A stretch of DNA of 64,000 nt. Source: Candidatus Altimarinota bacterium. GTDB lineage: Bacteria; Patescibacteriota; Gracilibacteria; UBA4473. Position 1 is the stretch's first letter, and each line of letters begins with the position of its first letter. A program made the translations under genes and the position numbers. The notes beneath the pieces are model-generated. The model was given only the letters and a program-made list of their open reading frames with translations, ran no database searches and was not told the DNA's origin. This document shows, piece after piece, positions 26,794-48,700 of this stretch. Where the stretch lies: assembly GCA_965231215.1 (NCBI GenBank), contig OZ246423.1, positions 928,001 through 992,000 of the forward strand, in the 5' to 3' direction.

Positions 26794-26927
26794 AACGATA
26801 AAAGTAATTGGTTAATAAGCTTATCCCAAAACTATTCCAGGCGCTAAAACCTCCCAGTGTTTAGCTAGGTTTTTGTTTTCCAACATTAAGATTTTATTTA
26901 AAATAAAGTTTGAAAAATAAAAACCCA

Positions 26928-28478
26928 ATGTACATTCACTTTAAGCTTATTGTGTCAATATGGCTTTTAACCTTCCTTTTGGGAGGCGTCCCAATAGTTT
27001 TAGCTGCAGAATTTGAAGTAAATAATATTCCCCAAAAAAGCACAGGAGACGCTATATCGGCTGTAGAATTCAACACTATTGTTGATACGCTCAAAGGGAT
27101 TAAGCGGAATGATTACGAGACGGTTACGTTAGATGATGATCTTTTTGGGATTGGACTTGCGCTGAGTTCCCCCTCGGAAAAGTTAGAGGTAGGCGGAAAT
27201 ATAAAAGCGGATAAATTTATTGGAGATGGATCAGAGTTAACAAACCTTCCAGACAGCCATTGGATCAAAACCGGAAGCAGTATTAACTATCAAGAAGGTA
27301 AAGTAGGTATTGGAATAGCCACTCCCTCCGCCAGGTTTCAGGTAGAAGGAGGGGTGATAGTGGACTTGCCAAGCACAGGAAGTTATTCAGATTTTTTGGT
27401 AAACCTCTTTGATGGAAGTGCGGCTCTTAAAGTGCAGCCAAATGGAGCAGTAGGAGTGGGAACTTCAACGCCTACACCAGGATTACTTATGGACATAGAA
27501 GGGGCTTTAGGAGTAGGGCAACTCTGTGATGAGAGTGGCGCTCACTGTCTGGAGGTTTCTGATATTGTGACGGGCGGGGGAATCGCGAATCTTTGGACGG
27601 ATAACAGTGGTAAAATTTACTATAATTCAGGCAATGTAGGTATTGGAGCTACAGATCCTGAAATGTGTGTAGGATGTACTAATAAAACTTTAGAAATCAA
27701 AGGTGAAAATCCAGGGATAGCCCTGAATGACCAAACAGGTTCCACCCAGAAGAAATTCAGAATTTTTAGTGATGATGGGTTTTTGCGTTTTGCTTCAACC
27801 GAGAGTGCTTCGAATCTTTCAAAATACGTCCAAATAGACACGGAGGGGAATATGAGTATTGGGAGTCCTACCGCTGCCAGCAAATTAGAGGTGAATGGCG
27901 GATTGAAACTGGGAACCGATACCAGTGCCTGTAGCGGTATTAAAGAAGGAACACTGCGTTACAGTGGAGGTCATGTGGAAGTATGTAATGGAACTTCTTG
28001 GATCGCTCTTGGATCTGGCGGAGGTGGGGGGAGCCTCTCTGTAGGCCCTGGATTTTATGCCCATAGAACAGCTTCTCAAAGTATTTCAAGCGGCAGCTGG
28101 ATACGGATAGATTATACGGCTGAAGAATTTGATAAAACCAATGACTTTGATCTGTCAAATGATCGTTTTGAGCCAAGTGTAGCTGGACGCTATATCCTGA
28201 CCGCTCAAACTCGGTATGAGGGAATGAGTTCGCAAGATATCGTCTTTATTCAGATCAAAAAGAATGGACAGGTTATTGCACGTGATCGAGTACGAGTTAT
28301 TGAATCGGGCTACACCAACCGGTATCCAGTTACAAAAGTTTCGGTGGTAGCTGAAGCCAATGGAACTTCAGATTACTTTGAGGTAGAGACCTACCATGAT
28401 TTTGGAGAAAACCGTAATCTGAATGCGAATAAATATTATACCAATTTTACTGGCTCTTTGGTGAATGCTGGTGCTTGA
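26928..28478 (+). CDS. Secreted tail-fibre-like protein 1 with C-terminal C1q/TNF-like domain
   Basis: Signal peptide ending VLA-AEF; KSTGDAISAVEFN; repeated GNVGIG..P...LEV.G shaft motifs; GTLRY...EVCNGTSW; C1q-like FYAHR...FDLSNDRF..P..GRY...FTG. Confidence 0.8.
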   Translation: MYIHFKLIVSIWLLTFLLGGVPIVLAAEFEVNNIPQKSTGDAISAVEFNTIVDTLKGIKRNDYETVTLDDDLFGIGLALSSPSEKLEVGGNIKADKFIGDGSELTNLPDSHWIKTGSSINYQEGKVGIGIATPSARFQVEGGVIVDLPSTGSYSDFLVNLFDGSAALKVQPNGAVGVGTSTPTPGLLMDIEGALGVGQLCDESGAHCLEVSDIVTGGGIANLWTDNSGKIYYNSGNVGIGATDPEMCVGCTNKTLEIKGENPGIALNDQTGSTQKKFRIFSDDGFLRFASTESASNLSKYVQIDTEGNMSIGSPTAASKLEVNGGLKLGTDTSACSGIKEGTLRYSGGHVEVCNGTSWIALGSGGGGGSLSVGPGFYAHRTASQSISSGSWIRIDYTAEEFDKTNDFDLSNDRFEPSVAGRYILTAQTRYEGMSSQDIVFIQIKKNGQVIARDRVRVIESGYTNRYPVTKVSVVAEANGTSDYFEVETYHDFGENRNLNANKYYTNFTGSLVNAGA

Positions 28479-28577: not shown

Positions 28578-30866
28578 ATGTCTTTGAATCGAATTTTTAC
28601 ACGTTATTTCTGTGCTGTTTTGGCTTTATTATGGGCCTTTTCTGCGGAAGCGTTGTTTTTTCAAGTAGATGACACTGTAGCCGCTGACAATGCGGCTTTT
28701 AGAGTTTCAGGATTACAGTCTAATGAAACGGTTGGCTTTTGGCTCGATAGACCCGAAGGTGAAGGTTTAACTTTTTCAGCTAAGGCCGATGAGTTCGGAG
28801 TGATTAATGAAGAGGTGTATGGACTGCACCTGAAAAAATCAGGCAAATATACCCTAAGCCTAACGCGGCCGTTGCTGCCGTATGATCCGGAAAGCGTAAG
28901 TTTTACCGTGAAACCCGGAGCGCCTTCGGCCTACCGGTCAGAACTAGTGGCTCATATAAAATCTCTGCCGGCCAATGGTGAGGCGGAGGGACCGTTTAAA
29001 GTAGTGGTGCGCGATGCTTATGGAAACCCTGTCTCAGATCAGAGCGTAAAAGTCTTCTCTTCACGAAAAGAAGACTGGATCGTAGCCTCTGGACGAACCG
29101 ATAGCGAAGGGATTATAAGAGGAAAAGTGACTTCACAAACACCTGGAGTTTCAGTGCTTTCAGCGCTTGTGGGAGAGGTTACTATTTTTGAGCGCACAGA
29201 GCTTATCTTTCACCTTCCCGCTAATCAACTTGGAAACGTGGGGCAATCAGACAATATTGGCCAGTTTCTTAAAGCGCAGTTATTTCAAGAAGAAGGGTTT
29301 GATGAGGTCGCTTATTTCACGCTAGAAGAAATAGAAAACGAGGTGATAACCGATCGAAACTATACCGTAAAAATAGTGGCTAAAGACGCTGACGGAAACA
29401 TCGTAAAAAACTATAAAGGAAAGATTAGATTTTCTTCAAGTGATAGCGAGGCTCAGCTCCCAGCCGATTATGAATTTGAAGACGAAGATCAAGGAGAACA
29501 TACCTTTGCCTTGGCCGTTACCTTTGGAACTCCAGGACAGCATACACTCAGTGTCGCCGACTTTAATAACTCGGTGATTCGAGGGCAAAAAACCTTAGAA
29601 GTATTTGATGAAGATCAATTTGGCCCAGAAGGAGAAGATGGACCTCTGACAATTATTACTCCGCTTGAAGGTACCTACAGTTCGCCAAGAATGACCATTA
29701 CGGGGAAAGGGCCATCAGGTTCTACTATTAAACTCAGCGATGGGCCAACACTGCTTATTGAAGACCTTATTATTGATACTAACGGGGACTTTGTATACCA
29801 AACTCCAGCACTAGCCGATGGACTGCATAAGTTTTTCGCATCCACACTGGATGAATCTCAGTTTTCAAACGAAGTAACGATTCGTATTGATCAGACTCCA
29901 CCGAGAGTATTGGCGGTAGAAGTAGACCCGCCAGAGGGCGTAGATCCAGGATCCATATTCCAGGTAAAAGTATCTTCAAATGAACCGCTCTCAAGTGCTC
30001 GGTGTGTGTTTAATGAAATTGCTCAAGTGCTGACTCAGTCTGGAGAAATCTTTGTCGGAAACTATCAGGCTCCACAAAGTTGTGGTGAATACCCAGTAGG
30101 ATGTACCGTCGCTGATGTGCTAGGGAATGAGTTGCAAGAAGACAACGCCGCCGTCGTAAAAGTCTGTAAAGAAGGGCAAGAAGAAGCTGATAAAGATACG
30201 GATCAAGATGGACTTAGCGATATTTCTGAAGGGTATGAACTCGATGATGACGGAGATTGCGTGCCAAACTGGCTGGAATCTATTGTTGCTGATAGTGATG
30301 GGGATGGCATAGTAGACCAAAAAGACCCAGATAATGACACCGATAATGGAGGGATTGATAATACCCGAGAATGTAGAGAACTTGGAACTGATCCACTCAA
30401 TCCAGATGATGATCAACAAGGAGGGATTCGCCCAACAGCGGTGCCTAATTTGTCAGCGGAACCTGGAGATAAAAGAGTTACGCTTTTCTGGTCCCCCGCT
30501 AAAGACGATAAAGAAGTAGTAGCCTACAGTATTAGCTACGGGCTCTCTTCAGACGCCCTAACCCTGACCAACAAGACGCCAGATGCGCGTACACAGTGGT
30601 ATATTGATGGACTCGAACCAGCGACAAAGTACTTCTTTCAGATTAGAGCTATAGATGATGGAGGGGCTCAGGGAGTGCCGAGTAATGTGGTGGAAGCCGC
30701 AACCTTCGATGCTAATGGGAACCCCGTAGAAGGAAGCTCCGTAAAGGGAGAACGCAATTTTCACTCTTCAGCAGTACCAAGGACTGGAGCTCGTAATTGG
30801 CTTCCGTATGGATTAGCTATTTTGGGAGGTATTTTCTTTTTATACGTCAGCCGGAAAAGGAGCTAA
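28578..30866 (+). CDS. Ig-like (Big/invasin) + acidic TSP3-like + FN3 surface protein with VPRTG sortase-type sorting signal
   Basis: Signal peptide; DAYGNPV, DADGN, DVLGN; DTDQDGLSD and DSDGDG repeats; FN3 (LFWSP...GLEPATKYFFQIRA); C-terminal VPRTG-TM-RKRS. Confidence 0.82.
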   Translation: MSLNRIFTRYFCAVLALLWAFSAEALFFQVDDTVAADNAAFRVSGLQSNETVGFWLDRPEGEGLTFSAKADEFGVINEEVYGLHLKKSGKYTLSLTRPLLPYDPESVSFTVKPGAPSAYRSELVAHIKSLPANGEAEGPFKVVVRDAYGNPVSDQSVKVFSSRKEDWIVASGRTDSEGIIRGKVTSQTPGVSVLSALVGEVTIFERTELIFHLPANQLGNVGQSDNIGQFLKAQLFQEEGFDEVAYFTLEEIENEVITDRNYTVKIVAKDADGNIVKNYKGKIRFSSSDSEAQLPADYEFEDEDQGEHTFALAVTFGTPGQHTLSVADFNNSVIRGQKTLEVFDEDQFGPEGEDGPLTIITPLEGTYSSPRMTITGKGPSGSTIKLSDGPTLLIEDLIIDTNGDFVYQTPALADGLHKFFASTLDESQFSNEVTIRIDQTPPRVLAVEVDPPEGVDPGSIFQVKVSSNEPLSSARCVFNEIAQVLTQSGEIFVGNYQAPQSCGEYPVGCTVADVLGNELQEDNAAVVKVCKEGQEEADKDTDQDGLSDISEGYELDDDGDCVPNWLESIVADSDGDGIVDQKDPDNDTDNGGIDNTRECRELGTDPLNPDDDQQGGIRPTAVPNLSAEPGDKRVTLFWSPAKDDKEVVAYSISYGLSSDALTLTNKTPDARTQWYIDGLEPATKYFFQIRAIDDGGAQGVPSNVVEAATFDANGNPVEGSSVKGERNFHSSAVPRTGARNWLPYGLAILGGIFFLYVSRKRS

Positions 30867-30991: not shown

Positions 30992-33598
30992 ATGCACTTT
31001 TTCTCTTTCCCCTTAATTTTATGCGGAGTCTTTTTGTTTTCTGTTGTTTCTGCTACAGAATATGATCCAAGCATTATACCATCAAAAGTAACCGGTGATG
31101 CTTTCACCGCCACAGAGCTAAATACTTTAGTAAATGTAGTGAAGGGTCTTAAACGAGATGATCAAAATACCAGCACTTTAAGTGATGATCGATTTGGAAT
31201 TGGTCTAGAATCAGCTTCCCCAACCCAAAAATTAGAGGTAAATGGGGGCATAAAAGCCACTAGATTTATAGGAGATGGATCACAATTGACGAGCCTTCCA
31301 GAAAAATACTGGATCCAAATTGGAGGAGATATTAATTACCCTTTAGGGAATGTAGGCATTGGTACCTCGAGTATAAGTCCAGGGCTAAAACTAGACATAG
31401 CGGGGAAAGTGGGAGCCGTAGAATACTGTGATGCTTTGGGGACTAATTGTGTAATGCCCTCAGATATAGCCTCCAGTATTGGAAGTGGCGGTGGCGCGAG
31501 TTCTATCCAGCGTGGGGGGAGTAATCCAGGGAGTGGCAGTGAAGGAGATATCTTTTACAATACCTCAAATAATCAAATCTATTTTCATGATGGAAGTAGC
31601 TGGGTAGAGATTAGTAACTCCGTGACCGTTACAACTCCGCCAGGGAGCCCAGATGCAGGAGATACGTATTACAATACTTCAAGTAATGAATATTTTTATT
31701 ATGATGGAGACAGTTGGGAAGTTTTAGGAGGCGGAAAGTGGGAAGAGGGAACAACGCTAGGAACCATTTATTATACTGGTGGAAATGTAGGGATTGGCAC
31801 CTCAAACCCTAGTTTTAAACTTACTATAGTTGGTGATGCAACTGCTTCATGGGTAAGTGCAGCAGCCCTATTGGCTGATACTAGTGCTGGTGGTAGAGCT
31901 TATTCAATTGGGAGTCGGAATGGAGTAGGATTTCATATAGGAGATGAAACAGCTGGAGTTTCATTATTGGTAATTGACGCTGCTGGAAACGCCGGAATTG
32001 GGACAAACAGCCCCTCCTCAGGGTTAAAACTAGACATAGAAGGAAAAATAGGCGCTACAGAATACTGTGATCAAAACGGAGGTAACTGTGTTCCCGCTGG
32101 CAGCTTGAGCAGTGGCGGCAGTGATAATTTAGGGGACCATACGGCCACCCAAACCCTTGATACGCAAGGGATAGATTTTTCAAGGGATAGTGCTCAAGGG
32201 CATATAGATGTAGATGGGGCTCTCTATCGTACAAATGGACAGGCTTACATAACGGTTGATGATAACCTTTATATAAGAGATGCCAATGGGGATTCATCCT
32301 TTAGATTTATAACGGGAAACAATCCCGAAATTAGAATGGGAACCTCAACCAACAATGGTTGGAATACCATTGCTATGGATTCAGCCAATTCCACAAAAAC
32401 CCTGAAAATTCATGGAATGGGAGATAGTAATCATCAATTGAGGTTTGGAAGATATGGAGATAACTATCAAGGCTGGGAAGCCAATCCTGTTGTTTTTGAT
32501 ATGGATGCGGATCACAACACCTTTTTTGTAGCCGGCAATAGTAGAGTCGGAATAGGGACCTCAAGTCCAGCCCAAAAGTTGCACGTAAACGGGAACATTC
32601 GTGCTGATGGGAGACATCTATATCTTGGTTCAGCTCAAGATATATATGGAGACAATAGTTCAGCGGTATATTATGACAGCAATCATGATACGGTCACGCA
32701 GTTAATCATGAGAGACAAACAAAACACGGTATATGGACGACTTTATGGAGATGGTGATGGAGTTGGTTTTGGTCTACTTGATGGAGATGGGAATTGGGCG
32801 ATTCGACACAGCAAAGACAATTATACAGAGTTTAGAGACAATAATGAGGCTCAGTTTAGAGTAGGAGCTGGAGGAGTTTCTGGAAGTTATGGAACGGTAG
32901 AGACTCAAGGAGGAGGAAAAGCAGGATGGGAAGGATTTAATATAAATGGACGATACGTATTTATGTCTTCCGATAACAATACAGTAGGTATTTATGATGA
33001 CATCAATAATCGTTGGCGTGAGTATTGGGATGCCGATGATTATGATCTTCGTCATCAAAACAATGAACTTATTATGCACGCAGATGAAGATGCCTATACT
33101 TACCTCTACCACAATGGAGGCTGGAAACTCAGGACTGAAAGTACAGGGGTAAGAATTAATAATGATCTCTGGGTAAATCGGATTTGTAATACTTCTGGAG
33201 GAGACTGTAAGAACCAATCTTCACTTGGCAGTGGCAGTGGAGGTGGTGGCGGCGGCGGGGCGACTGGGTGTATTTATCAGGGAACCTACCGAGCTGAAGG
33301 ATATGTTTTTTATGATAATTACGGTTCGTGTAATGTAGGGTGTACTAATTATGGGAATGGAAGTACTTGTAGTAACTATACGAGAAATGGTTCAAGATCC
33401 TGCCGTAGAAATACCTGTCAGAGTAATGGTACTTGGGCACAAACAAACACAAGTTGTGGATGTAGTTGTACGGGGAGAAGCTGTAGTGACGATGATGATG
33501 ATAACGATGAGGCTTTAGATGATCTTATTTTGTCAAAAGGAGCTGAAGGTATAAAAACCCTTATTGAAGAACAAAAAGCCAAAGGAAAACTCTACTAG
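30992..33598 (+). CDS. Secreted tail-fibre-like protein 2 with Cys-rich C-terminal tip
   Basis: Signal peptide; [13 protein letters not shown]; GNVGIGT shaft repeats; GDxYYNT...YDGxSW modules; phage-fibre-like [10 protein letters not shown] / [16 protein letters not shown]; Cys-rich tail with DDDDDND. Confidence 0.82.
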   Translation: MHFFSFPLILCGVFLFSVVSATEYDPSIIPSKVTGDAFTATELNTLVNVVKGLKRDDQNTSTLSDDRFGIGLESASPTQKLEVNGGIKATRFIGDGSQLTSLPEKYWIQIGGDINYPLGNVGIGTSSISPGLKLDIAGKVGAVEYCDALGTNCVMPSDIASSIGSGGGASSIQRGGSNPGSGSEGDIFYNTSNNQIYFHDGSSWVEISNSVTVTTPPGSPDAGDTYYNTSSNEYFYYDGDSWEVLGGGKWEEGTTLGTIYYTGGNVGIGTSNPSFKLTIVGDATASWVSAAALLADTSAGGRAYSIGSRNGVGFHIGDETAGVSLLVIDAAGNAGIGTNSPSSGLKLDIEGKIGATEYCDQNGGNCVPAGSLSSGGSDNLGDHTATQTLDTQGIDFSRDSAQGHIDVDGALYRTNGQAYITVDDNLYIRDANGDSSFRFITGNNPEIRMGTSTNNGWNTIAMDSANSTKTLKIHGMGDSNHQLRFGRYGDNYQGWEANPVVFDMDADHNTFFVAGNSRVGIGTSSPAQKLHVNGNIRADGRHLYLGSAQDIYGDNSSAVYYDSNHDTVTQLIMRDKQNTVYGRLYGDGDGVGFGLLDGDGNWAIRHSKDNYTEFRDNNEAQFRVGAGGVSGSYGTVETQGGGKAGWEGFNINGRYVFMSSDNNTVGIYDDINNRWREYWDADDYDLRHQNNELIMHADEDAYTYLYHNGGWKLRTESTGVRINNDLWVNRICNTSGGDCKNQSSLGSGSGGGGGGGATGCIYQGTYRAEGYVFYDNYGSCNVGCTNYGNGSTCSNYTRNGSRSCRRNTCQSNGTWAQTNTSCGCSCTGRSCSDDDDDNDEALDDLILSKGAEGIKTLIEEQKAKGKLY
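32546..33240 (+). repeat. ~695-bp coding module present three times (also 34695-35389 and 39422-40116)
   Basis: Near-identical DNA from GTCGGAATAGGGACC to CAGTGGCAGTGG. Offsets 2149 and 4727; the antisense shadow ORFs are also identical. Confidence 0.92.
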
Positions 33599-33622
33599 AA
33601 CAGATAAAGAAAGATTAAAAAT

Positions 33623-33657
33623 AAAGGCCTTCAGAAATTATTTGGAGGTCTTTTTTT
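33623..33657 (+). terminator. Intrinsic terminator after fibre gene 2
   Basis: AAAGGCCTTCA-loop-TGGAGGTCTTT with U-tract. Confidence 0.65.
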
Positions 33658-33720
33658 CTATTATGAAAATAAAATGAAGAATAAAGCAATATATTTTTTG
33701 AGATAAGCTTACGTTATTAA

Positions 33721-33729
33721 TGCTATAAT
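33721..33729 (+). promoter_or_regulatory. Extended -10 promoter of fibre gene 3
   Basis: TGCTATAAT. Implies the start is ATG 33756 rather than TTG 33729. Confidence 0.6.
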
Positions 33730-33755
33730 TGCGCGAACTTAAAAAAAGAAGGCCA

Positions 33756-36700
33756 ATGCGTCACCCCTCTCTTAGCGTTTGCATGATGGTGCTTATGGTC
33801 GTTTTGACTGTGTTTGAGCCAGTTAAAGCCGCAGAATATGATCCCTCGTCCATCCCCAAAAAAGAAACGGGAGATGCTTTTACCGCTACAGAGCTAAATA
33901 CTTTAGTAAATGTAGTGAAGGGTCTTAAACGAGATGACCAAGGCACCAGCGCTTTAGGTGATGATCGATTTGGAATTGGTCTAGAATCAGCTTCACCAAC
34001 CCAAAAACTAGAGGTAAACGGAAACGTAAAAGCCACTAGATTTATAGGAGATGGATCACAATTGACCAATCTTCCAGAACAGTATTGGATAAAATCCTCT
34101 GGTAATATTAATTACCCTTTAGGTAATGTAGGTATTGGTACCTCGAGTATAAGTCCAGGGCTAAAACTAGACATAGCAGGAAAAGTGGGAGCCGTAGAAT
34201 ACTGTGATGCTTTGGGGACTAATTGTGTAGTGCCCTCGGATGTAGCCTCCAGCATTGCAAGTGGAGGCGGCGCAAGTGCTATTCAGCGTGGGGGGAGTAA
34301 TCCAGGCAGTGGAAGTGAAGGAGATGTTTTTTATAATACAACAGATAATCAAATCTATTTTTATAATGGGAGTAGCTGGGAAGCAATTGGAGGCGGAAAG
34401 TGGGGAGAAGGCACAACGCTAGGAACCATTTATTATACTGGTGGAAATGTGGGGATTGGGACGGCGAGTCCGAAAGTGCCGTTGCATGTGAATGGTGATG
34501 CCTATATTCAGGGGCAGGATTTAATTATGTCTTACCCCACTGATGCTAATAATATTGATAGTATCAGTTACAACGATGGTAATGCTGTTGGCTCTACGGG
34601 GGTTTATACGTTCTTGTCCGATACGACTTTGCGTCCAGCCTGGTACGCACCGACAGCAGCGATTTCCGCGAAGGGCGGTTATTTTGCAGGTAATGTCGGA
34701 ATAGGGACCTCAAGTCCAGCCCAAAAGTTGCACGTAAACGGGAACATTCGTGCTGATGGGAGACATCTATATCTTGGTTCAGCTCAAGATATATATGGAG
34801 ACAATAGTTCAGCGGTATATTATGACAGCAATCATGATACGGTCACGCAGTTAATCATGAGAGACAAACAAAACACGGTATATGGACGACTTTATGGAGA
34901 TGGTGATGGAGTTGGTTTTGGTCTACTTGATGGAGATGGGAATTGGGCGATTCGACACAGCAAAGACAATTATACAGAGTTTAGAGACAATAATGAGGCT
35001 CAGTTTAGAGTAGGAGCTGGAGGAGTTTCTGGAAGTTATGGAACGGTAGAGACTCAAGGAGGAGGAAAAGCAGGATGGGAAGGATTTAATATAAATGGAC
35101 GATACGTATTTATGTCTTCCGATAACAATACAGTAGGTATTTATGATGACATCAATAATCGTTGGCGTGAGTATTGGGATGCCGATGATTATGATCTTCG
35201 TCATCAAAACAATGAACTTATTATGCACGCAGATGAAGATGCCTATACTTACCTCTACCACAATGGAGGCTGGAAACTCAGGACTGAAAGTACAGGGGTA
35301 AGAATTAATAATGATCTCTGGGTAAATCGGATTTGTAATACTTCTGGAGGAGACTGTAAGAACCAATCTTCACTTGACAGTGGCAGTGGCGCGAGTGCTA
35401 TCCAGCGTGGGGGGAGCACTCCAGGGAGTGGAAGTGAAGGAGATGTTTTTTATAACACAACAGATAATCAAATCTATTTTTATAATGGAAGTAGCTGGGA
35501 AGCAATTGGAGGCGGAAAGTGGGGAGAGGGAACAACGCTAGGAACCATTTATTACACTGGTGGAAATGTGGGGATAGGAACCGCTACTCCGGCAGCGTTG
35601 TTAGATATAGCTGGGGGAGTCAAGATTGGAGATGATACAGCTGTCTGTGACAACACGAAAGCCGGAACAATCCGATACCAAGGAGGTGCAGTCCAAGTCT
35701 GTGATGGGTCAACTTGGGGATCCCTCGTGAGTGGGGGGAGTGGAGAGTTTGGGGTGCTAGATTGTGAGCTGGGGACTTTGGCAATCTCTAGCGATAATAG
35801 TGAAGTTTGTACGATCTATAATGATGATATGAAATTGCTGGCCAGTGATGCGGCGGTGGATGATCGCTTTGGCGTGAGCGTGTCCGTGTCTGGTGATATT
35901 GCGGTGATTGGGGCTTATTTCGATGATGATGCTGGTTCGAATAGTGGTTCGGCCTATGTGTTTAGGCGCTCTGGGACGAACTGGGTTCAGGAGGCGAAGC
36001 TGACGGCCAGTGATGCGGCGGCGAATAATCATTTTGGCCATAGGGTGTCCGTGTCTGGTGATACGGCTATGATTGCGGCTAATAACGGTGGTTTTGGTTC
36101 TGCTTTTGGTGTGGTCTATGTGTTTAAGCGCTCTGGGACGAACTGGGTTCAGGAGGCGAAGCTGACGGCCAGTGATACGGGTAGGTTCAATGGCTTTGGC
36201 TCGAGCATATCCATGTCTGGAGATAGGGCCGTGATTGGGGCTAGTGGGGCTAATGATACTGGTGCGGTCTATGTGTTTAAGCGCTCTGGGACGAACTGGG
36301 TTCAGGAGGCGAAGCTGAGGGCCTCTGATGCGGGGGCGAGGGATCAGTTTGGCTATAGGGTCTCCGTGTCTGGTGATACGGCCGTGATTGGGGCGTTTGC
36401 CGATGATGATGGTGGTAGGGATAGTGGTGCGGCCTATGTATTTACACGCTCTGGCACAACATGGAGGCAGGAGGCGAAGCTGACGGCCAGTGATGCGGCG
36501 GAGGTTGATCGCTTTGGCATGAGCGTCTCCGTGTCTGGTGATATTGCGGTGATTGGGGCTTATTTGGATGATGATGCTGGTTCGAATAGTGGTTCGGCCT
36601 ATGTGTTTACGCGCTCTGGCACAACCTGGACGCAGGAGGCGAAGCTGACAGCCAGTGATGCGGCGTCGGGTGATTATTTTGGCGTGAGCGTGTCTGTGTC

Positions 36701-37454
36701 TGGAGATAGGGCGATGATTGGGGCTTATGGCGATGATGCGTTTACTGGTTCGGCCTATGTGTTTACGCGCTCTGGCACAACATGGACGCAGGAGGCGAAG
36801 CTGACGACCAGTAATGCGGCGAGGTATAGTTATTTTGGCTATAGCGTGTCAATGTCTGATAATAGGGCGGTGATTGGGGCGTATGGCGGTGATGATGGTG
36901 GTCGTTGGTTTCGTGGTGTGGCCTATGTTGTAAATGTTGGGACTCAGACGTCTGATACGCTTTCTCAATTGAGTTGTACGGATGGACAGGTTGCGGCTTG
37001 GGATAGTGCGAGCAGTGCTTGGAAATGTGCGGATGGGTCGGGCGGCAGCTCCGCCTTCACCGTCGTCAAAACCGCACATCAGTCCGCGGCTAACGGCGCT
37101 ATCGTGACCTGGGATCTGGCGCTGAACAATGTCGGTGATGATTTCGACCTCACCAATAACCGCTATGTTGCTCCGTCCGACGGGGTCTATCATTTCTCCT
37201 ATGAGATTCTGGGACAAAATAATACGAATACATCAAACTACCGGGTGTATAAAAATGGCGTCAACACGGGGATCGCATCCTACGGAGGCGCTGGCGGCAG
37301 TGTTGTACATCGGCAAAGCGATGCCTCCTTCATTCTGAAACTGACAGCCGGCGATCAGATCGACATTCGGGCTGCAGGCACTCAACAGCCGTATGGAAAC
37401 GCAGGGGCCTATCACACCCATTTCTCCGGCTTCAAAATCTCCGGCGGCGGGTAA
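33756..37454 (+). CDS. Secreted tail-fibre-like adhesin 3: shaft + 7-bladed FG-GAP propeller + C1q domain
   Basis: Signal peptide ending VKA-AEY; shared shaft modules; seven KLxASD...FG.SVS.SGD.A.IGA...G.AYVF repeats; C1q (AFTV...[19 protein letters not shown]...FSGF). Confidence 0.88.
35832..36941 (+). repeat. Seven ~150-170-bp FG-GAP tandem repeats (array A)
   Basis: Recurrent CAGGAGGCGAAGCTGA, GTGTCCGTGTCTGG and GCCTATGTGTTTA scaffold with variable loop codons. Confidence 0.93.
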
Positions 37455-38325
37455 AGGCACTACCGTTGATTCAGTCACCATCGCCGTAACCACCACCCAA
37501 AGGACCGTACCGGTAAATGTTTCCGGGGTCAATAACGCGGTTGGCGTGAACGGAAGTTGTGCGGTTCTCTCTAACGGACAAGTCCAGTGCTGGGACGGAT
37601 ACGGACTGAATACTATTTCTGGAATTGATAATGCGGTTTCATTGGGAAACGCTAGTAAATCTGATGGCTGTGCGCTTTTGGATACCGGAAGAGTTAAGTG
37701 TTGGGAGCGAAATCGCCTCGATGAGGATCTAAGATCTCCGACGAGAAACATCTATGGAGCGACTCGCCTGGTGATGCATCGTCGCAATGGTTGTGTAGTG
37801 CTGGAAACCGGTAAACTACAGTGTTGGAGTGATGGTTATAGTGATTGGCCCAAGTACCCGGCTATTGTTAGCGGCATTGATAATGTGGTAGATGTTTCTG
37901 TTGAAAATGAAGCTCTCTGTGTGCTTCAGAGCGATGGAGTGGTAAAGTGTTTCGGAGACGCTTCACATGATATTTTCGGTGGAGCGGGGCAGTATCCTTA
38001 TGAGACACCACCGGCAGTAACGGTGGCGACAGGGGCGGTAGCGCTGGCGATGACTGGCCATAATAACTGTATTACCTTTGGGAATGGAAGTACTTGTAGT
38101 AACTATACGAGAAATGGTTCAAGATCCTGCCGTAGAAATACCTGTCAAAGTAATGGTACTTGGGCACAAACAAACGCAAGTTGTGGATGTAGTTGTACGG
38201 GGAGAAGCTGTAGTGACGATGATGATGATAACGATGAGGCTTTAGATGATCTTATTTTGTCAAAAGGAGCTGAAGGTATAAAAACCCTTATTGAAGAACA
38301 AAAAGCCAAAGGAAAACTCTACTAG
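37453..38325 (+). pseudogene. RCC1/BLIP-II-like repeat segment in the +1 frame after gene 3, fused in frame to a copy of the gene-2 Cys-rich tail
   Basis: Four C-xx-L-xx-G-x-V/L-x-C-W/F repeats plus a partial fifth, then GNGSTCSNY...KGKLY as in gene 2. No signal peptide of its own. Confidence 0.65.
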
Positions 38326-38349
38326 AACAGATAAAGAAAGATTAAAAAT

Positions 38350-38384
38350 AAAGGCCTTCAGAAATTATTTGGAGGTCTTTTTTT
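38350..38384 (+). terminator. Duplicated intrinsic terminator
   Basis: Same sequence as 33623-33657. Confidence 0.65.
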
Positions 38385-38447
38385 CTATTATGAAAATAAA
38401 ATGAAGAATAAAGCAATATATTTTTTGAGATAAGCTTACGTTATTAA

Positions 38448-38456
38448 TGCTATAAT
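38448..38456 (+). promoter_or_regulatory. Extended -10 promoter of fibre gene 4 (duplicated)
   Basis: TGCTATAAT. Confidence 0.6.
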
Positions 38457-38482
38457 TGCGCGAACTTAAAAAAAGAAGGCCA

Positions 38483-41400
38483 ATGCGTCACCCCTCTCTT
38501 AGCGTTTGCATGATGGTGCTTATGGTCGTTTTGACTGTGTTTGAGCCAGTTAAAGCCGCAGAATATGATCCCTCGTCCATCCCCAAAAAAGAAACGGGAG
38601 ATGCTTTTACCGCTACAGAGCTAAATACTTTAGTAAATGTAGTGAAGGGTCTTAAACGAGATGACCAAGGCACCAGCGCTTTAGGTGATGATCGATTTGG
38701 AATTGGTCTAGAATCAGCTTCACCAACCCAAAAACTAGAGGTAAACGGAAACGTAAAAGCCACTAGATTTATAGGAGATGGATCACAATTGACCAATCTT
38801 CCAGAACAGTATTGGATAAAATCCTCTGGTAATATTAATTACCCTTTAGGTAATGTAGGTATTGGTACCTCGAGTATAAGTCCAGGGCTAAAACTAGACA
38901 TAGCAGGAAAAGTGGGAGCCGTAGAATACTGTGATGCTTTGGGGACTAATTGTGTAGTGCCCTCGGATGTAGCCTCCAGCATTGCAAGTGGAGGCGGCGC
39001 AAGTGCTATTCAGCGTGGGGGGAGTAATCCAGGCAGTGGAAGTGAAGGAGATGTTTTTTATAATACAACAGATAATCAAATCTATTTTTATAATGGGAGT
39101 AGCTGGGAAGCAATTGGAGGCGGAAAGTGGGGAGAAGGCACAACGCTAGGAACCATTTATTATACTGGTGGAAATGTGGGGATTGGGACGGCGAGTCCGA
39201 AAGTGCCGTTGCATGTGAATGGTGATGCCTATATTCAGGGGCAGGATTTAATTATGTCTTACCCCACTGATGCTAATAATATTGATAGTATCAGTTACAA
39301 CGATGGTAATGCTGTTGGCTCTACGGGGGTTTATACGTTCTTGTCCGATACGACTTTGCGTCCAGCCTGGTACGCACCGACAGCAGCGATTTCCGCGAAG
39401 GGCGGTTATTTTGCAGGTAATGTCGGAATAGGGACCTCAAGTCCAGCCCAAAAGTTGCACGTAAACGGGAACATTCGTGCTGATGGGAGACATCTATATC
39501 TTGGTTCAGCTCAAGATATATATGGAGACAATAGTTCAGCGGTATATTATGACAGCAATCATGATACGGTCACGCAGTTAATCATGAGAGACAAACAAAA
39601 CACGGTATATGGACGACTTTATGGAGATGGTGATGGAGTTGGTTTTGGTCTACTTGATGGAGATGGGAATTGGGCGATTCGACACAGCAAAGACAATTAT
39701 ACAGAGTTTAGAGACAATAATGAGGCTCAGTTTAGAGTAGGAGCTGGAGGAGTTTCTGGAAGTTATGGAACGGTAGAGACTCAAGGAGGAGGAAAAGCAG
39801 GATGGGAAGGATTTAATATAAATGGACGATACGTATTTATGTCTTCCGATAACAATACAGTAGGTATTTATGATGACATCAATAATCGTTGGCGTGAGTA
39901 TTGGGATGCCGATGATTATGATCTTCGTCATCAAAACAATGAACTTATTATGCACGCAGATGAAGATGCCTATACTTACCTCTACCACAATGGAGGCTGG
40001 AAACTCAGGACTGAAAGTACAGGGGTAAGAATTAATAATGATCTCTGGGTAAATCGGATTTGTAATACTTCTGGAGGAGACTGTAAGAACCAATCTTCAC
40101 TTGACAGTGGCAGTGGCGCGAGTGCTATCCAGCGTGGGGGGAGCACTCCAGGGAGTGGAAGTGAAGGAGATGTTTTTTATAACACAACAGATAATCAAAT
40201 CTATTTTTATAATGGAAGTAGCTGGGAAGCAATTGGAGGCGGAAAGTGGGGAGAGGGAACAACGCTAGGAACCATTTATTACACTGGTGGAAATGTGGGG
40301 ATAGGAACCGCTACTCCAGCAGCGTTGTTAGATATAGCTGGGGGAGTCAAGATTGGAGATGATACAGCTGTCTGTGACAACACGAAAGCCGGAACAATCC
40401 GATACCAAGGAGGCGCAGTCCAAGTCTGTGATGGATCGACTTGGGGATCTCTCGTGAATGGGGGGAGTGGGGAGTTTGGGGTGCTGGATTGTGAGCTGGG
40501 GACTTTGGTAATCTCTAGCGATAATAGTGAAGTTTGTACGATCTATAATGATGATATGAAATTGCTGGCCAGTGATGCGGCGGCGGGGGATTGGTTTGGC
40601 TTTAGCGTGTCCGTGTCTGGTGATACGGCCGTGATTGGGGCTTATTTGGATGATGATGGAGGTAGGGATAGTGGTTCGGCCTATGTGTTTAGGCGCTCTG
40701 GGACGAGCTGGGTTCAGGAGGCGAAGCTGACGGCCAGTGATGCGGCGGCGGGGGATTATTTTGGCTGGAGCGTGTCCGTGTCTGGTGATACGGCCGTGAT
40801 TGGGGCTTATCGCGATAATCATGGTGTTGGTTTGTATAGTGGCGCGGCCTATGTGTTTAAGCGCTCTGGGACGAGCTGGGTTCAGGAGGCGAAGCTGACG
40901 GCCAGTGATGCGGCGGAGGGGGATTGGTTTGGCTTTAGTGTGTCCGTGTCTGGTGATACGGCGGTGATTGGGGCTCTTGTCGATGATGATGGAGGTAGGG
41001 ATAGTGGTTCGGCTTATGTGTTTAAGCGCTCTGGGACGAGCTGGGTTCAGGAGGCGAAGCTGAGGGCCTCTGATGCGGGGGCGAATGATCAGTTTGGCTT
41101 TAGCGTGTCCGTGGATGGTGATAGGGTCGTGATTGGGGCTTATGGCTATGATGATGGTGGGGGATGGGCCTATGTGTTTAAGCGCTCTGGGACGAACTGG
41201 GTTCAGGAGGCGAAGCTGACGGCCAGTGATGCGGGGGCGCATGATCGCTTTGGCGTGAGCGTGTCCTTGTCTGGTGATACGGCCGTGATTGGGGCTTATA
41301 AGGATGATACTGCTGGTTGGAAAGCTGGTGCGGCCTATGTGTTTACGCGTTCTGGCACAACATGGACACAGGAGGCGAAGCTGACGGCCAGTGATGCGGG

Positions 41401-42193
41401 GGCGAATTATTTTGGCTTTAGTGTGTCCGTGTCTGGAGATAGGGCGATGATGGGGGCCATTGGCGATAATAATGCTGGTTCGTGGTCTGGCGCGGCCTAT
41501 GTGTTTAAGCGCTCTGGCACAACCTGGACGCAGGAGGCGAAGCTGACGGCCAGTGATGCGGCGAGGGGTGATTCTTTTGGCAGGAGCGTGTCCGTGTCTG
41601 GAGATAGGGCGATGATTGGGGCTCCTTACAATGATGATGGTGGGTCGGGGAGTGGTTCGGCGTATGTTGTAAATATTGGGACTCAGACGTCTGATACGCT
41701 TTCTCAGTTGAGTTGTACGGATGGACAGGTTGCGGCTTGGGATAGTGCGAGCAGTGCTTGGAAATGTGCGGATGGGTCGGGCGGCAGCTCCGCCTTCACC
41801 GTCGTCAAAACCGCATATCAGTCCGTGGCTAACGGCGCTATCGTGACTTGGGATCTGGCGCTGACCAATGTCGGTGATGATTTCGACCTCACCAACAACC
41901 GCTATGTCGCCCCGTCCGACGGGGTCTATCATTTCTCCTATGAGATTCTGGGACAAAATAATACGAATACATCAAACTACCGGGTCTATAAAAATGGCGT
42001 CAACACGGGGATCTCATCCTACGGAGGCGCTGGCGGTAGTGTTGTACATCGACAAAGCGACGCCTCCTTCATTCTGAAACTGACAGCCGGCGATCAGATC
42101 GACATTCGGGCTGCAGGCACTCAACAGCCGTATGGAAACGCAGGGGCCTATCACACCCATTTCTCCGGCTTCAAAACCTCCGGCGGCGGGTAA
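38483..42193 (+). CDS. Secreted tail-fibre-like adhesin 4: paralog of gene 3 with different propeller loops
   Basis: Protein identical by eye to gene 3 up to ...GSTWGSLV, then seven FG-GAP blades with different loops and a near-identical C1q domain. Confidence 0.88.
40559..41680 (+). repeat. Seven FG-GAP tandem repeats (array B)
   Basis: Same scaffold as array A, 12 nt longer overall. Confidence 0.93.
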
Positions 42194-42398
42194 AGGCACT
42201 ACCGTTGATTCAGTCACCATCGCCGCAACCACCCCCCAAAGAACCGTACCGGTAAATGTTTCCGGGGTCAATAACGCGGTTGGCGTGAACGGAAGTTGTG
42301 CGGTTCTTTCTGACGGACAAGTCCAGTGCTGGGACAGATACGGACTGCATACTATTTCCGGAATTGATAATGTGGTTTCATTGGGAAACGCTTATTGA
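42192..42398 (+). pseudogene. Truncated RCC1-like segment in the +1 frame after gene 4
   Basis: Paralogous to 37453-37653; ends SLGNAY* at the duplication boundary. Confidence 0.7.
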
Positions 42399-45756: not shown

Positions 45757-48700
45757 ATGCGATTTATCCATTTTTGGACTTATATTTTGATGCTTGTTTT
45801 TGGAACTTTTTATTTCTGGACCCAGTCTAGATATCCAAAACTGCTTGAAAAATCTGTGGCTGGAGAACTCATAGAAACGGATGGTGGGATTGCCTTTCAT
45901 CCAAAATTTTTTCTAGAACCCACAGATTTATGGTTTGAGGCCATCGGAAAAATATTTTTTAACTGGGGGTATGACAACATCCAGGGAATGACTTTTGGGT
46001 TTTTTCTCGGAGCGGTTATTCTGTCACTCGTAAAGGTATCTCCTTGGTTTCAAAAAACTTACAAATCCCATTGGGCCAATATCCTTCAGGGGTTTACGTT
46101 AGGGGTGCCTATTGGCGTTTGTGCTAATTGTATTGTTCCCGTAGGGCAAGGACTTATTAGGGCCGGTAAATCCTGGTCTTTAGTGCTGACTACGATGGTG
46201 AGTTCTCCTACGTTTAACGTCATTGTGATACTCATTTTGATGTTGCTGTTTCCCTGGTATTTGGTGCTGCTTAAAATCTTAGGAACGCTGCTAATCATTG
46301 CCTGCATTCCTCTCATTACGGCAGGACTTGAAAACAAAAAAAATGCCAAATCTATAGCGGCTGAATCCTGCGAAGTAAAATCCTACAAAAATGGTGTTGA
46401 AGCTTTTCTAGACGCTATTAAAGATTTTTTGAAACACCTAGTTTTTATCCTCCAAAAGACTTTGGGCTGGATGATATTAGCCGGACTTTTAGGAGCTATA
46501 TTTATCTATTTTATGCCGTTTGATGTGCTTTCAGAGCTACCAGTAACTTGGTGGAGTCTGATTTTTATTGCGATGGTAGGAACTTTTGTTCCAGTGCCGA
46601 TAACTTTTGATCTCTTTTTGGCTTCTATTTTATTTCAGGGTGGAGCGCCAGCAGGAATTGTAATGGTGCTCTTATTTACTTTAGGGATTCACAGTATCTA
46701 TCCAGCAATGATTATTTATCGTGAAGCCAACCCAAAAGTCGCGTTAAAACTCTTTAGTCTGGTAGTGGCGATGGGGGTTTTGCTGGGAATGCTGGCACAC
46801 CAGTTGGATACACGTTTTGTGAACCAGACAAAGTCGGTTTTAAGCCAACAAGCCGTGCAAAATTTTCAAAAAGAGAAAGCCATTTTAAAACAATCTTGCC
46901 GTCAGTTGCCAGATATAAAAGCTCAAGAAGCCTGTTTCAAAAAAGGAATTAAAGAACGGCTTGGAAAAAACCAAAAGGCTGACTTGTGTAAATTAGAATC
47001 TGATTGGCTTTCGGTTTCCCAGTGTAGAGCCTTGATTATGACTCAGCGAGCTGTGGCAGAAGGAAACTTGGATTTTTGTAATGGATTGTATAAAGAGCTC
47101 AAACTTAACTGCCAAAGGGCGGTAGTGCAGTCAGTAGTAGAAGAGCGCCGTAAACATAAAGCTATCTGCAAAGTACTCCCTCAAGCTGAGCAATTGAAAT
47201 GTGAAGATGAAGTCGAAAAAAGACGAGTTTCACAAATCTATCCAGAATTTTATAGTGTGCTTTGTTCTGGATTTGAGCGCCCAAGGAACCTCGATTTCTG
47301 TTTTGCTAAAAGAGTCATCTATCAGCCAGAACTCTGTGATGAATTGAAATCTTCAGAAGATCAGCTTTGGTGTCATGAAAAGAGAATCCTTACACAAGCT
47401 ACGATCACTATTGAAGATATGTACCTAGAAGATCCGGCAGGAAGTAGAGCCATTTTAGACATTAAATCTGATGTCTCTGAAAAACCTTTGTCCGAGATTA
47501 AAACCCCTCAAATTATACCGGAAGTGCTGTCAGATCAAGATGACATTAAAATCGAAACTATTAAAGGTTTGCCTAAATCTACTTGGGACGGGGCAACTGT
47601 TTTTGAGCGAATAGAATTGCCTCATATGGGGAACCGGTTTGGGATACTTGATTTTTTTACGCCTTTCTCATTGGGGAGAGGTATTGCGGTGGGAGATGTA
47701 AATAAAGATCATTGGCCAGACTTGGTTTTTGCTACAAAAAGTGGGGTTGAGCTTTATGTTGGAAATGGAACTGAGAATTTTTCGAAAGTAAAATTGGACG
47801 AGAACCTATCATCTAAAAGCGTGTTTTTAGTCAGTCTAATTGATATAAATAACGATACTTGGGTAGACATATTTTTATCTACTTATTCTGGTAAGAACTT
47901 TTTTATCATTAATGATGAAGGGGTATTTTCAGAGGTTATAGAGCTTGATAAAAATTCAGAGAGAGCTATTAGTTTTGGAGCCACATTTAGTGATTTAGAT
48001 CAAAATGGATTCTTGGATATAGGTCTGGGCAATGTCACTTCCTATAACCGAGATTTTATTCGTAAAACTTCCTCAAAAAATGAAGTCTATCTCAATAATA
48101 GCTTAGATTTTAAAAAATATGATTTCCCAGAAATCACAGGGGAAACCCTTTCAATTTTGTTTTCAGACGTAGATCAAAATGGGGTTACAGACCTTCTTGT
48201 GGGCAATGATTATAAAGAGCCAGATATGTATTATTTTGATTTTTTTGAGCACAAAACGCCGGATAAAAGATCCAAAATAAAACACACCGCTGCCAGTACT
48301 ATGAGTATTGATACTGGAGATATAAATAATGATCTTCATTTGGATCTGTTTTTGGCGGATATGAGCTTTAAAAAAAATAGCGTTAACTACTGTGATAGTA
48401 TCAAAGATGCCGAGGCTTATAAAAAGTGTAGTTACTATCGTGATGTACTCCATCCAATTATTAGGAGTCGCTCAGTGAGTCAGTGCCAAAGTTTGGAAGC
48501 GAGTGGTGCTTGTATGGTGGCCGTGGCTTTAGCTTTGGCCATTCAGTATGAAGATAAAAGTTTTTGTGAAGCCATACCTACCGTCTATCCCAAAGTTCAG
48601 GCACGATGTTTTCGGGCTCTAGAACAAAGAACCGATAAAATTGAAACCATGGATCTAAACGATTTTGGCTGGCAAAAAACAGAGAACGTATTGCTCTTGG

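Follow-up and report, generated by a model that had tools for sequence, protein, structure and literature searches.

Two kinds of repeat protein come closest to the genes described here. Highly repetitive beta-propellers, among them FG-GAP/alpha-integrin types of bacteria and archaea, have been catalogued, and a continuous cycle of amplification and differentiation has been proposed for them (Pereira & Lupas 2022, PMC9218822). The WD40, ANK and TPR repeats of fungal NOD-like receptors (NLRs) are described as combining high internal conservation and concerted evolution with positive selection at few positions of the binding surface (Dyrka et al. 2014, PMC4986451). Here we analyse two tandem genes, named 3 and 4, that encode fibre proteins with a seven-bladed FG-GAP_2 propeller. 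They lie in a 64,000-nucleotide stretch, hereafter the window, of the genome of a Candidatus Altimarinota bacterium (contig OZ246423.1, genome positions 928001-992000). With moderate confidence we favour the view that these two fibre paralogues carry a highly repetitive FG-GAP_2 propeller that was acquired horizontally, and whose ligand face is subject to concerted evolution and positive selection.

Like the catalogued highly repetitive propellers, the two arrays exceed 60% internal blade identity (mean pairwise identity 0.69 over all 14 blades, 0.72 within gene 4), fall within the FG-GAP/alpha-integrin lineage and count their blades in multiples of seven. They differ in what they add to that catalogue, whose main text does not contain the terms 'positive selection', 'hypervariable' or 'gene conversion': a nucleotide-level pattern, a ratio of nonsynonymous to synonymous rates (omega, or dN/dS) above 1 at fixed columns of the loops, and a tandem pair of paralogues that are diverging. 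With the HET-E/HET-D/NWD-type fungal repeats, as far as these are described in the source cited above, they share near-identical repeats, concerted evolution, exchange within and between family members, and selection at few positions per repeat on the interaction surface, which is assigned here by topology. The differences from those described repeats are also clear. The unit is FG-GAP_2 and not WD40, ANK or TPR, the protein is an extracellular fibre and not a cytoplasmic NLR, and the organism is a prokaryote and not a fungus; identity is 69% as against about 85%, and both copies have the same fixed number of seven repeats.

All positions below are those of the window unless stated otherwise. 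Gene 3 (33729-37454, + strand; 1241 residues) and its tandem paralogue gene 4 (38456-42193, + strand; 1245 residues) are alike in architecture: a signal-like N-terminus, a tail-fibre-like stalk, a neck, the seven-blade propeller and a C1q tip. Pfam recognizes seven FG-GAP_2 (PF14312) repeats in each protein, with E-values of 1.9e-119 and 2.2e-134 for genes 3 and 4 and whole-protein scores of 390 and 438 bits at a cut-off of 23. The C1q domain (PF00386) scores 47.3 and 46.8 bits, the cut-off being 23.7, and covers profile positions 1-125 of 127; it occupies 37053-37433 in gene 3 (+ strand; residues 1109-1235, genome 965053-965433) and 41792-42172 in gene 4 (+ strand). These are the only two families that Pfam finds in genes 3 and 4. 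It detects no NACHT or NB-ARC module, which sets these secreted-fibre proteins further apart from the fungal NLRs. The translation starts are probably the ATG codons at 33756 and 38483, since the database form of the gene 4 protein has 1236 residues.

The two genes diverge in a strikingly uneven way. Their first 1862 nt are identical, and the first nucleotide difference falls at gene position 1863 (35591). The stalk tract 33729-35590 thus equals 38456-40317 (both + strand), with neither a synonymous nor a nonsynonymous difference over 600 codons; it may be read as the trace of a recent gene conversion or duplication. As the preliminary description of the window had stated, the proteins are identical for about 660 residues, the first amino-acid differences occurring at residues 668 and 685 (numbered from the TTG start), while all seven blades differ and the C1q tips are near-identical (6 of the 172 residues C-terminal to the propeller differ). 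The proportions of synonymous (pS) and nonsynonymous (pN) differences are 0.093 and 0.009 in the neck, and 0.072 and 0.015 in the tip; in the seven positional blade pairs they range over 0.10-0.24 and 0.10-0.28, respectively. In counts, gene 3 and gene 4 show 136 nonsynonymous and 43 synonymous differences in the propeller versus 8 and 16 in the flanks (Fisher p = 5e-5). Upstream, the two copies have 2 mismatches in 377 nt. A blastn self-comparison delimits the duplicated unit as 33352-37653 and 38079-42392 (both + strand; 94.6% over 4334 columns), the first copy running from the 3' tail of gene 2 across the intergenic region and gene 3 to a point 200 nt downstream.

Propeller A spans 35832-36935 on the + strand, its blades A1-A7 starting at 35832, 35997, 36159, 36312, 36477, 36642 and 36798. 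Propeller B spans 40559-41674 on the + strand, with blades B1-B7 starting at 40559, 40724, 40892, 41057, 41213, 41378 and 41540. These coordinates agree with the overall blade span of 35832-41680 given earlier. We aligned the 14 blades into 58 codon columns, many of which hold a single codon in all or nearly all blades. Three DNA motifs quoted in the preliminary description occur 10, 7 and 8 times, exclusively within the two propellers, where 100 shuffles led us to expect none. The scaffold had been called conserved down to its synonymous sites; it is strongly so, but not perfectly, with a mean pairwise blade pS of about 0.20. Change is indeed concentrated at few places: columns 10, 12, 15, 30 and 40 each hold 7-8 residue types, and the loop after the IGA motif varies in length. 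Also visible in the alignment are the recurrences at non-equivalent blades noticed before, namely the A1/A5 core, the B1/B3 core and the DDDGGRDSG loop of A4, as well as the KLRASDAGA segment kept in blade 4 of both genes.

To keep the definition of hypervariable columns independent of the tested data, we took it from 119 other FG-GAP_2 proteins (about 2100 blades). With an entropy of at least 3 bits in a 55-column blade model, these are columns 10, 12, 15, 29, 30, 33, 34, 36, 37, 45 and 50. The ratio of dN at these columns to dS in the scaffold is 3.75 for the 14 blades. Codon models were fitted with a home-made Goldman-Yang (GY94) likelihood, using F3x4 frequencies, a FastTree topology and optimisation of all branch lengths. 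Under model M0, omega is 0.75. Allowing a positively selected class (M2a, log-likelihood -1214.28) improves on the nearly neutral model (M1a, -1241.37) by 2dlnL = 54.2, with an omega2 of 4.8 for 20% of codons; likelihood-ratio tests on six simulations under the fitted M1a gave 0-3.5. In this single-tree fit, the naive posterior P(omega>1) exceeds 0.95 at columns 10, 12, 15, 29, 30, 38, 40 and 53. Because recombination inflates such tests, we refitted three segments, each with its own tree: the statistic is 21.6 for columns 1-20, 18.0 for columns 21-44 and 0.1 for columns 45-58. Column 53 lost its support in the process and was dropped as a selected site. The earlier claim that dN/dS exceeds 1 at loop codons is nevertheless borne out, by the comparison of M2a with M1a as by the ratio of hypervariable dN to scaffold dS.

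The same tendency is seen at two shorter distances. The 11 family-defined columns provide 66 codons for comparison between positional orthologues of genes 3 and 4; 47 of these differ, 31 by two nucleotides or more, and pN there is 0.46 versus a scaffold pS of 0.14. Between the youngest blade pairs (A1/A5 and B1/B3, columns 4-47), pS is 0.077, pN at hypervariable columns 0.151 and pN in the scaffold 0.014. Hypervariable columns take 6.5 of the 8.5 nonsynonymous changes in these pairs; column 9, which adjoins the loop, accounts for the remaining 2.

We modelled propeller B with AlphaFold2 from a 28-sequence alignment and obtained four strands per blade at high confidence (pLDDT 92.8, pTM 0.92). 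In a Foldseek search against the PDB, the top 50 matches are integrin alpha chains, with template modelling (TM) scores of about 0.7, E-values down to 1.9e-17 and 16-19% identity, in line with the integrin-alpha-like propeller predicted in the preliminary description. Placing the DSSP string on the blade alignment, strand 1 reads SVSVS, strand 2 TAVIGA, strand 3 GSAYVFxR and strand 4 WxQEAKL. Columns 10 and 12 are then in the strand4-to-1 loop and column 15 at its end, with columns 29, 30, 38 and 40 in the strand2-to-3 loop; these two loops accommodate seven of the eight codons with P(omega>1) above 0.95. By the antiparallel, four-stranded topology of the blade, both loops should lie on one face of the propeller, as had been supposed, the short 1-2 and 3-4 hairpins of the beta-meander forming the opposite face.

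The ligand-binding face of integrins is made up of the 4-1 and 2-3 loops. Tyrosine (17), glycine (12), arginine (10), phenylalanine (9), serine (8) and tryptophan (5) together make up 61 of the 90 residues at the seven loop sites, a composition that looks like that of a binding site. By analogy, the variable face would bind a ligand, and this ligand may sit on a host cell. The likeness to the integrin alpha propeller extends to seven FG-GAP blades and a TM-score of about 0.7. The propeller of genes 3 and 4 differs from it in its regular, short repeats, its acidic strand2-to-3 loop, the lack of a beta-subunit partner and its place on a C1q-tipped fibre. A C-terminal C1q fold is normally trimeric, and going by that family the fibre is probably a trimer.

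Blades have also exchanged sequence. With a window of 5, the pairwise homoplasy index (PHI) falls below that of permuted data, with p = 0.0005 on all 63 informative sites and p = 0.0035 on the 32 scaffold sites. Between A1 and A5 there is no difference in columns 31-47 and there are seven nucleotide differences in columns 48-55, among them the synonymous pairs GGG/GGC and ACG/ACA. These synonymous tail markers follow array position in both genes, one form occurring in blades 1-3 (and B4), the other in A4-A6, B5 and B6. As the A1 and A5 cores match while their tails keep the positional markers, the core has moved between non-equivalent blades. A tree of the blades groups blade 4 of one gene with blade 4 of the other, and likewise blade 7; it joins B1 to B3, A2 to A3 and A1 to A5. 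The blade-to-blade conversion postulated earlier is therefore supported by mosaicism as well as by the PHI test. We discarded a Sawyer-type longest-run test as evidence: 25 of 91 pairs reach p<0.05, but the global p is 0.13, and the test is confounded by clustered fast sites.

How special is this locus? More than 7900 proteins match a query made of the propeller and tip, the best matches being 37-65% identical and coming from Planctomycetota, Verrucomicrobiota, Acidobacteriota, Bacteroidota, Campylobacterota, archaea and others. Blade counts in the family are multiples of seven, and the family blade consensus is almost the same as that of the window. The per-column entropy of our blades correlates with the mean within-protein entropy of the other members (Spearman 0.74). 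Among the family proteins listed, 22 exceed gene 4 in blade-to-blade identity. We then took the DNA of 55 loci, of which 44 arrays have at least 6 usable blades. Scaffold pS ranges from 0.20, the value of the window and the lowest of all, to about 0.8. All seven other arrays with a scaffold pS of at most 0.35 reject M1a (p 6e-4 to 1e-13), and the columns involved are again 10, 12, 15, 29, 30 and 36/37; these arrays belong to SAR202, Planctomycetota, Phycisphaerae, Acidobacteriota and Anaerolineales. Since consensus, variable columns and columns with omega>1 are the same across unrelated phyla, this is a general mode of the repeat family and not a private system. The window is a particularly clean instance of that general FG-GAP_2 mode. 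The notion of a distinct diversification 'system', put forward in the preliminary description, did not hold: no dedicated machinery was found, and the pattern recurs across unrelated phyla.

Stalk and propeller have different histories. The stalk family is native to the lineage: of the genomes searched, all four of the same genus and 11 of 15 of the same family contain it, and it recurs in several more open reading frames (ORFs) of this genome. The query combining propeller and C1q has no match in the four same-genus genomes, and in the same family it matches 2 of 24 genomes, through distant propellers only; a search of 40 relatives likewise returned only distant propellers. The propeller looks inserted between neck and tip because the neck of gene 1, a fibre gene upstream, leads directly to the C-terminal domain. 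Its codons are unlike those around it. GC content at third codon positions (GC3) is 0.54-0.57 in the propeller and 0.58-0.59 in the tip; adenine there (A3) is 0.03-0.04 in the propeller. In the stalks and neighbouring genes, GC3 is 0.30-0.36 and A3 0.28-0.32. The propeller module is compositionally foreign, and horizontal transfer would explain its acquisition.

The third positions of the propeller contain 0.15 C, 0.40 G (0.38-0.41), 0.42 T (0.40-0.43) and 0.03 A, and those of high-GC family members about 0.55 C, 0.33 G, 0.07 T and 0.03 A. As a guess, the propeller could be a high-GC array that underwent C-to-T change on the coding strand without the complementary G-to-A. Propeller B is spanned by an antisense ORF of 542 codons (- strand, 40328-41956). 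The simplest explanation is the scarcity of A-ending sense codons, since a coding strand free of TTA, CTA and TCA leaves no antisense stops in frame.

The history that we favour, of an acquired propeller under concerted evolution and positive selection, would run as follows. An FG-GAP_2 propeller would have been inserted between the neck and the C1q tip of a native fibre. Its blades would derive from one unit, or have been repeatedly homogenised towards one, leaving scaffold codons near-identical. Homologous exchange between the genes would account for a stalk without differences and for the pS of 0.07-0.09 in neck and tip; it would also have involved blades at non-equivalent positions, of which the A1/A5 and B1/B3 cores are examples. 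Selection for amino-acid change would act on about seven positions per blade, in the strand4-to-1 and strand2-to-3 loops. General recombination and selection would suffice for all this, with no dedicated mutator or recombinase. As the loops differ while the rest is near-identical, the two fibres present different surfaces rich in Tyr, Gly, Arg, Phe and Ser, and most likely bind different ligands. A bolder version makes FG-GAP_2 a widespread prokaryotic scaffold for hypervariable receptors, the extracellular equivalent of the fungal NLR repeats of high internal conservation. Here, the 14 blades would serve each other as donors, and continuing conversion between blades and between genes, with selection on about seven loop positions per blade, would give the population of this CPR episymbiont a repertoire of binding faces that determines or shifts the host cells open to attachment; we regard this version as doubtful.

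Several observations weigh against the favoured history. A-ending codons make up 1 of 30 eligible distinct loop states, against 11.8 expected from host usage (p ~6e-6); such avoidance of A at third positions is odd if the loops arose recently by ordinary mutation in an AT-rich genome, and it is the main unexplained point. At hypervariable columns, pN is 0.40-0.68 in all 44 arrays regardless of pS, and none of the 44 has young, still-similar loops. A pN saturated in this manner is as compatible with old loops on a homogenised scaffold as with rapid adaptive change. The codon-model code is home-made, with F3x4 frequencies, FastTree topologies and naive posteriors, and recombination inflates such tests; some estimates for high-GC arrays are unstable (locus L034: omega2 = 44, tree length 35). 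The face assignment comes from strand topology, read from the DSSP string of the model and not from coordinates. Finally, ongoing diversification is conjectural. The locus is found in three public runs of one study, available as short Logan contigs, and every variant that we traced in them equals the other paralogue or another blade: for example, the one at 35857-35876 reproduces the A1-to-B1 differences, that at 36566-36632 is A1 placed on A5, and the contig joints fit paralogous blades or other fibre genes. With the C1q tip as query, metagenome contigs gave three weak partial matches and no close alleles.

These points lend weight to two other histories. The differentiation may have happened once: a blade was amplified to seven, directional selection reshaped the loops of each blade a single time into one asymmetric binding site, and the duplicates specialised on two fixed ligands, with neither diversification nor an arms race since. 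This would match the 'amplification and differentiation' cycle proposed for highly repetitive propellers in PMC9218822. Omega above 1 among paralogous repeats alone does not show ongoing change, and both arrays have exactly seven blades that keep positional markers (blades 4 and 7 pairing across genes, tail haplotypes). We consider it rather unlikely all the same, for in the youngest blade pairs new replacements are again nearly confined to loop columns and their neighbours (6.5 of 8.5, plus the 2 at column 9), 47 of the 66 hypervariable codons differ between positional orthologues despite a flank pS of 0.07-0.09, and the signal recurs in 7 of 7 other arrays of low dS. The loops may, on the other hand, be old or imported, perhaps from a high-GC donor, on a scaffold that alone was homogenised by short-tract conversion; dN/dS above 1 would then reflect erased synonymous divergence. 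Conversion does occur, as PHI and the mosaics show; saturation of hypervariable pN is common to all arrays whatever their pS; and loop codons share the non-host avoidance of A at third positions, which resemble those of a high-GC member after C-to-T change. Yet the conversion tracts that we observe carry loop codons too, A1/A5 and B1/B3 sharing most of their loops, so that selection for diversity is still required to keep the loops different. After the A1/A5 and B1/B3 events, loop codons again acquired single-nucleotide replacements, and even the propeller's own scaffold pS between positional orthologues (0.14) leaves a ratio of about 4.6. Old loops on a homogenised scaffold hence seem improbable to us.

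Much further down stands a dedicated mechanism, be it mutagenesis akin to that of diversity-generating retroelements (DGRs), a site-specific shufflon or a programmed conversion of cassettes. Depletion of A at third positions resembles DGR variable regions, and an orphan tip-like ORF (37393-38325) lies between the genes. As in DGR targets, the hypervariable codons belong to a surface protein with a conserved, putatively ligand-binding scaffold, and adenine is scarce at silent sites in both cases. The likeness ends there, as the genome has no DGR reverse transcriptase or template repeat, and the substitutions are not adenine-specific. A six-frame search of the complete genome found exactly 14 blades, all above cut-off and all in genes 3 and 4; hence there is no template repeat, nor any blade copy elsewhere from which cassettes could be drawn. 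The only two RVT_1 matches of the genome are adjacent genes about 600 kb away, Drt3a (E 1.4e-107) and Drt3b (E 1.2e-210). Variable codons are not NNY derivatives of AAY (in column 15, 7 of 14 codons end in G), and the scaffold differs at non-A positions as well. A DGR was rejected on these grounds, and an invertase or shufflon on the absence of Phage_integrase and Resolvase, hence of tyrosine and serine recombinases, from the window; in the rest of the genome, Phage_integrase occurs at 818 and 883 kb and Resolvase at 345 and 813 kb. The preliminary description was thus right to see neither in the window, and any such mechanism strikes us as very improbable. We give as little credence to an assembly artefact, in which alleles of two co-existing strains were wrongly placed in tandem. 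An identity of 2.2 kb is hard to assemble, and both versions are present in one run at similar depth (223.6 and 267.9 at 35657-35812). Equal depth is, however, expected of two copies in one genome, which here is a single closed-looking contig. The copies have different downstream contexts, and contigs of the public runs extend into both: one of 570 nt passes 37653 without differences, while a loose end at 37653 reads into the sequence after gene 4.

Drt3a (442 residues) and Drt3b (666 residues), at genome positions ~326960-330300, are an observation in their own right, as a type 3 DRT anti-phage defence pair in the genome of a Candidate Phyla Radiation (CPR) bacterium.

Genes 3 and 4 belong to one fibre family with two further genes upstream, the four being consecutive on the + strand. 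Each opens with a signal-like hydrophobic segment, followed by a stalk rich in GNVGIGT-type motifs; against PHROG, the stalk gives short matches to phrog_9942, annotated as tail fiber protein (E 4e-10). Gene 1 (26910-28478, + strand) has stalk and neck, then a C-terminal domain at the position of the C1q tip, and no propeller. Its codon composition is host-like (GC3 0.35), and a Pfam search of it returned no family, C1q included. Gene 2 (30992-33598, + strand) ends in a distinct Cys-rich, acidic C-terminal tail, while in its middle (32546-33240) it shares 99.9% identity with genes 3 and 4. Pfam likewise finds no family in gene 2 or in several neighbours, and NCBIfam none in any of the four fibre proteins. 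The ORF between the paralogues (37393-38325, + strand) overlaps the end of gene 3 by 62 nt and has weak RCC1_2-like repeats, with neither stalk nor signal peptide. It shares its C-terminal tail with gene 2 (33341-33640 versus 38068-38367, 98% at the DNA level) and may be what the duplication left of a tip, as an orphan or silent fragment. Natural systems for comparison are phage tail fibres and fibres tipped with C1q, such as Bacillus BclA. These, too, combine a modular stalk with exchangeable distal domains and a C-terminal C1q; the difference is that here we see a chromosomal paralogous family, with no phage context or collagen-like repeats.

Other surface-type genes are found nearby. About 5 kb upstream of the window, a fibre-family ORF of 1912 codons (- strand, genome ~918400-922840) has an N-terminus 94% identical to residues 1-212 of gene 4 and four tandem C1q domains, one of which is 79% identical to the gene 4 tip. 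Inside the fibre cluster, 28578-30866 encodes a protein of 762 residues that has Big_1/invasin-like and fn3 domains. Its terminal VPRTG motif, hydrophobic segment and basic tail look like a sortase-type cell-wall anchor. At 45757-49320, 3.5 kb downstream of gene 4, a 1187-residue protein with UnbV_ASPIC as its C-terminal domain joins an ArsP_1 permease domain to repeats of FG-GAP_3/VCBS type; this other FG-GAP-type protein is unrelated to the propellers of genes 3 and 4.

The genome has 1.326 Mb in one contig and is scored 99.3% complete. Its IF-2 is 58-81% identical to many proteins; those with depositor-given names come from Candidatus Gracilibacteria (71%, 67% and 66%), Peregrinibacteria (66%) and Peribacteria (58%). 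As its closest named counterparts are from Candidatus Gracilibacteria or Peregrinibacteria, the assumption that the host of these genes is a CPR cell was a reasonable one. TGA terminates 7 of 26 long ORFs in the window, and the standard bacterial code therefore applies. In a relative of the same class (G036:C15:1504-3594), FG-GAP_2 propeller matches are broken by TGA codons only. This suggests that TGA is read as sense in that genome, unlike in the one studied here.

Highly repetitive propellers and the fungal NLR mode of evolution are already known; family-wide selection on FG-GAP_2 loops we have not found described. In the main texts that we searched, subscription journals lying outside that scope, there was no report of hypervariable or positively selected FG-GAP repeats in prokaryotes, nor of FG-GAP proteins in CPR bacteria. 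These bacteria depend on attachment to host cells, and few of their adhesins are known. A fibre that bears an integrin-like propeller just beneath its C1q tip, and whose two copies differ on one face and hardly elsewhere, is a concrete candidate for a determinant of host or ligand specificity. All eight FG-GAP_2 arrays of low divergence, which come from several phyla, have omega above 1 at the same six or seven loop positions per blade. This suggests that the family is a natural binder of the 'consensus scaffold plus variable face' kind, comparable to the fungal NLR repeats. The pattern marks the residues to vary or graft when the FG-GAP_2 scaffold is studied or borrowed.

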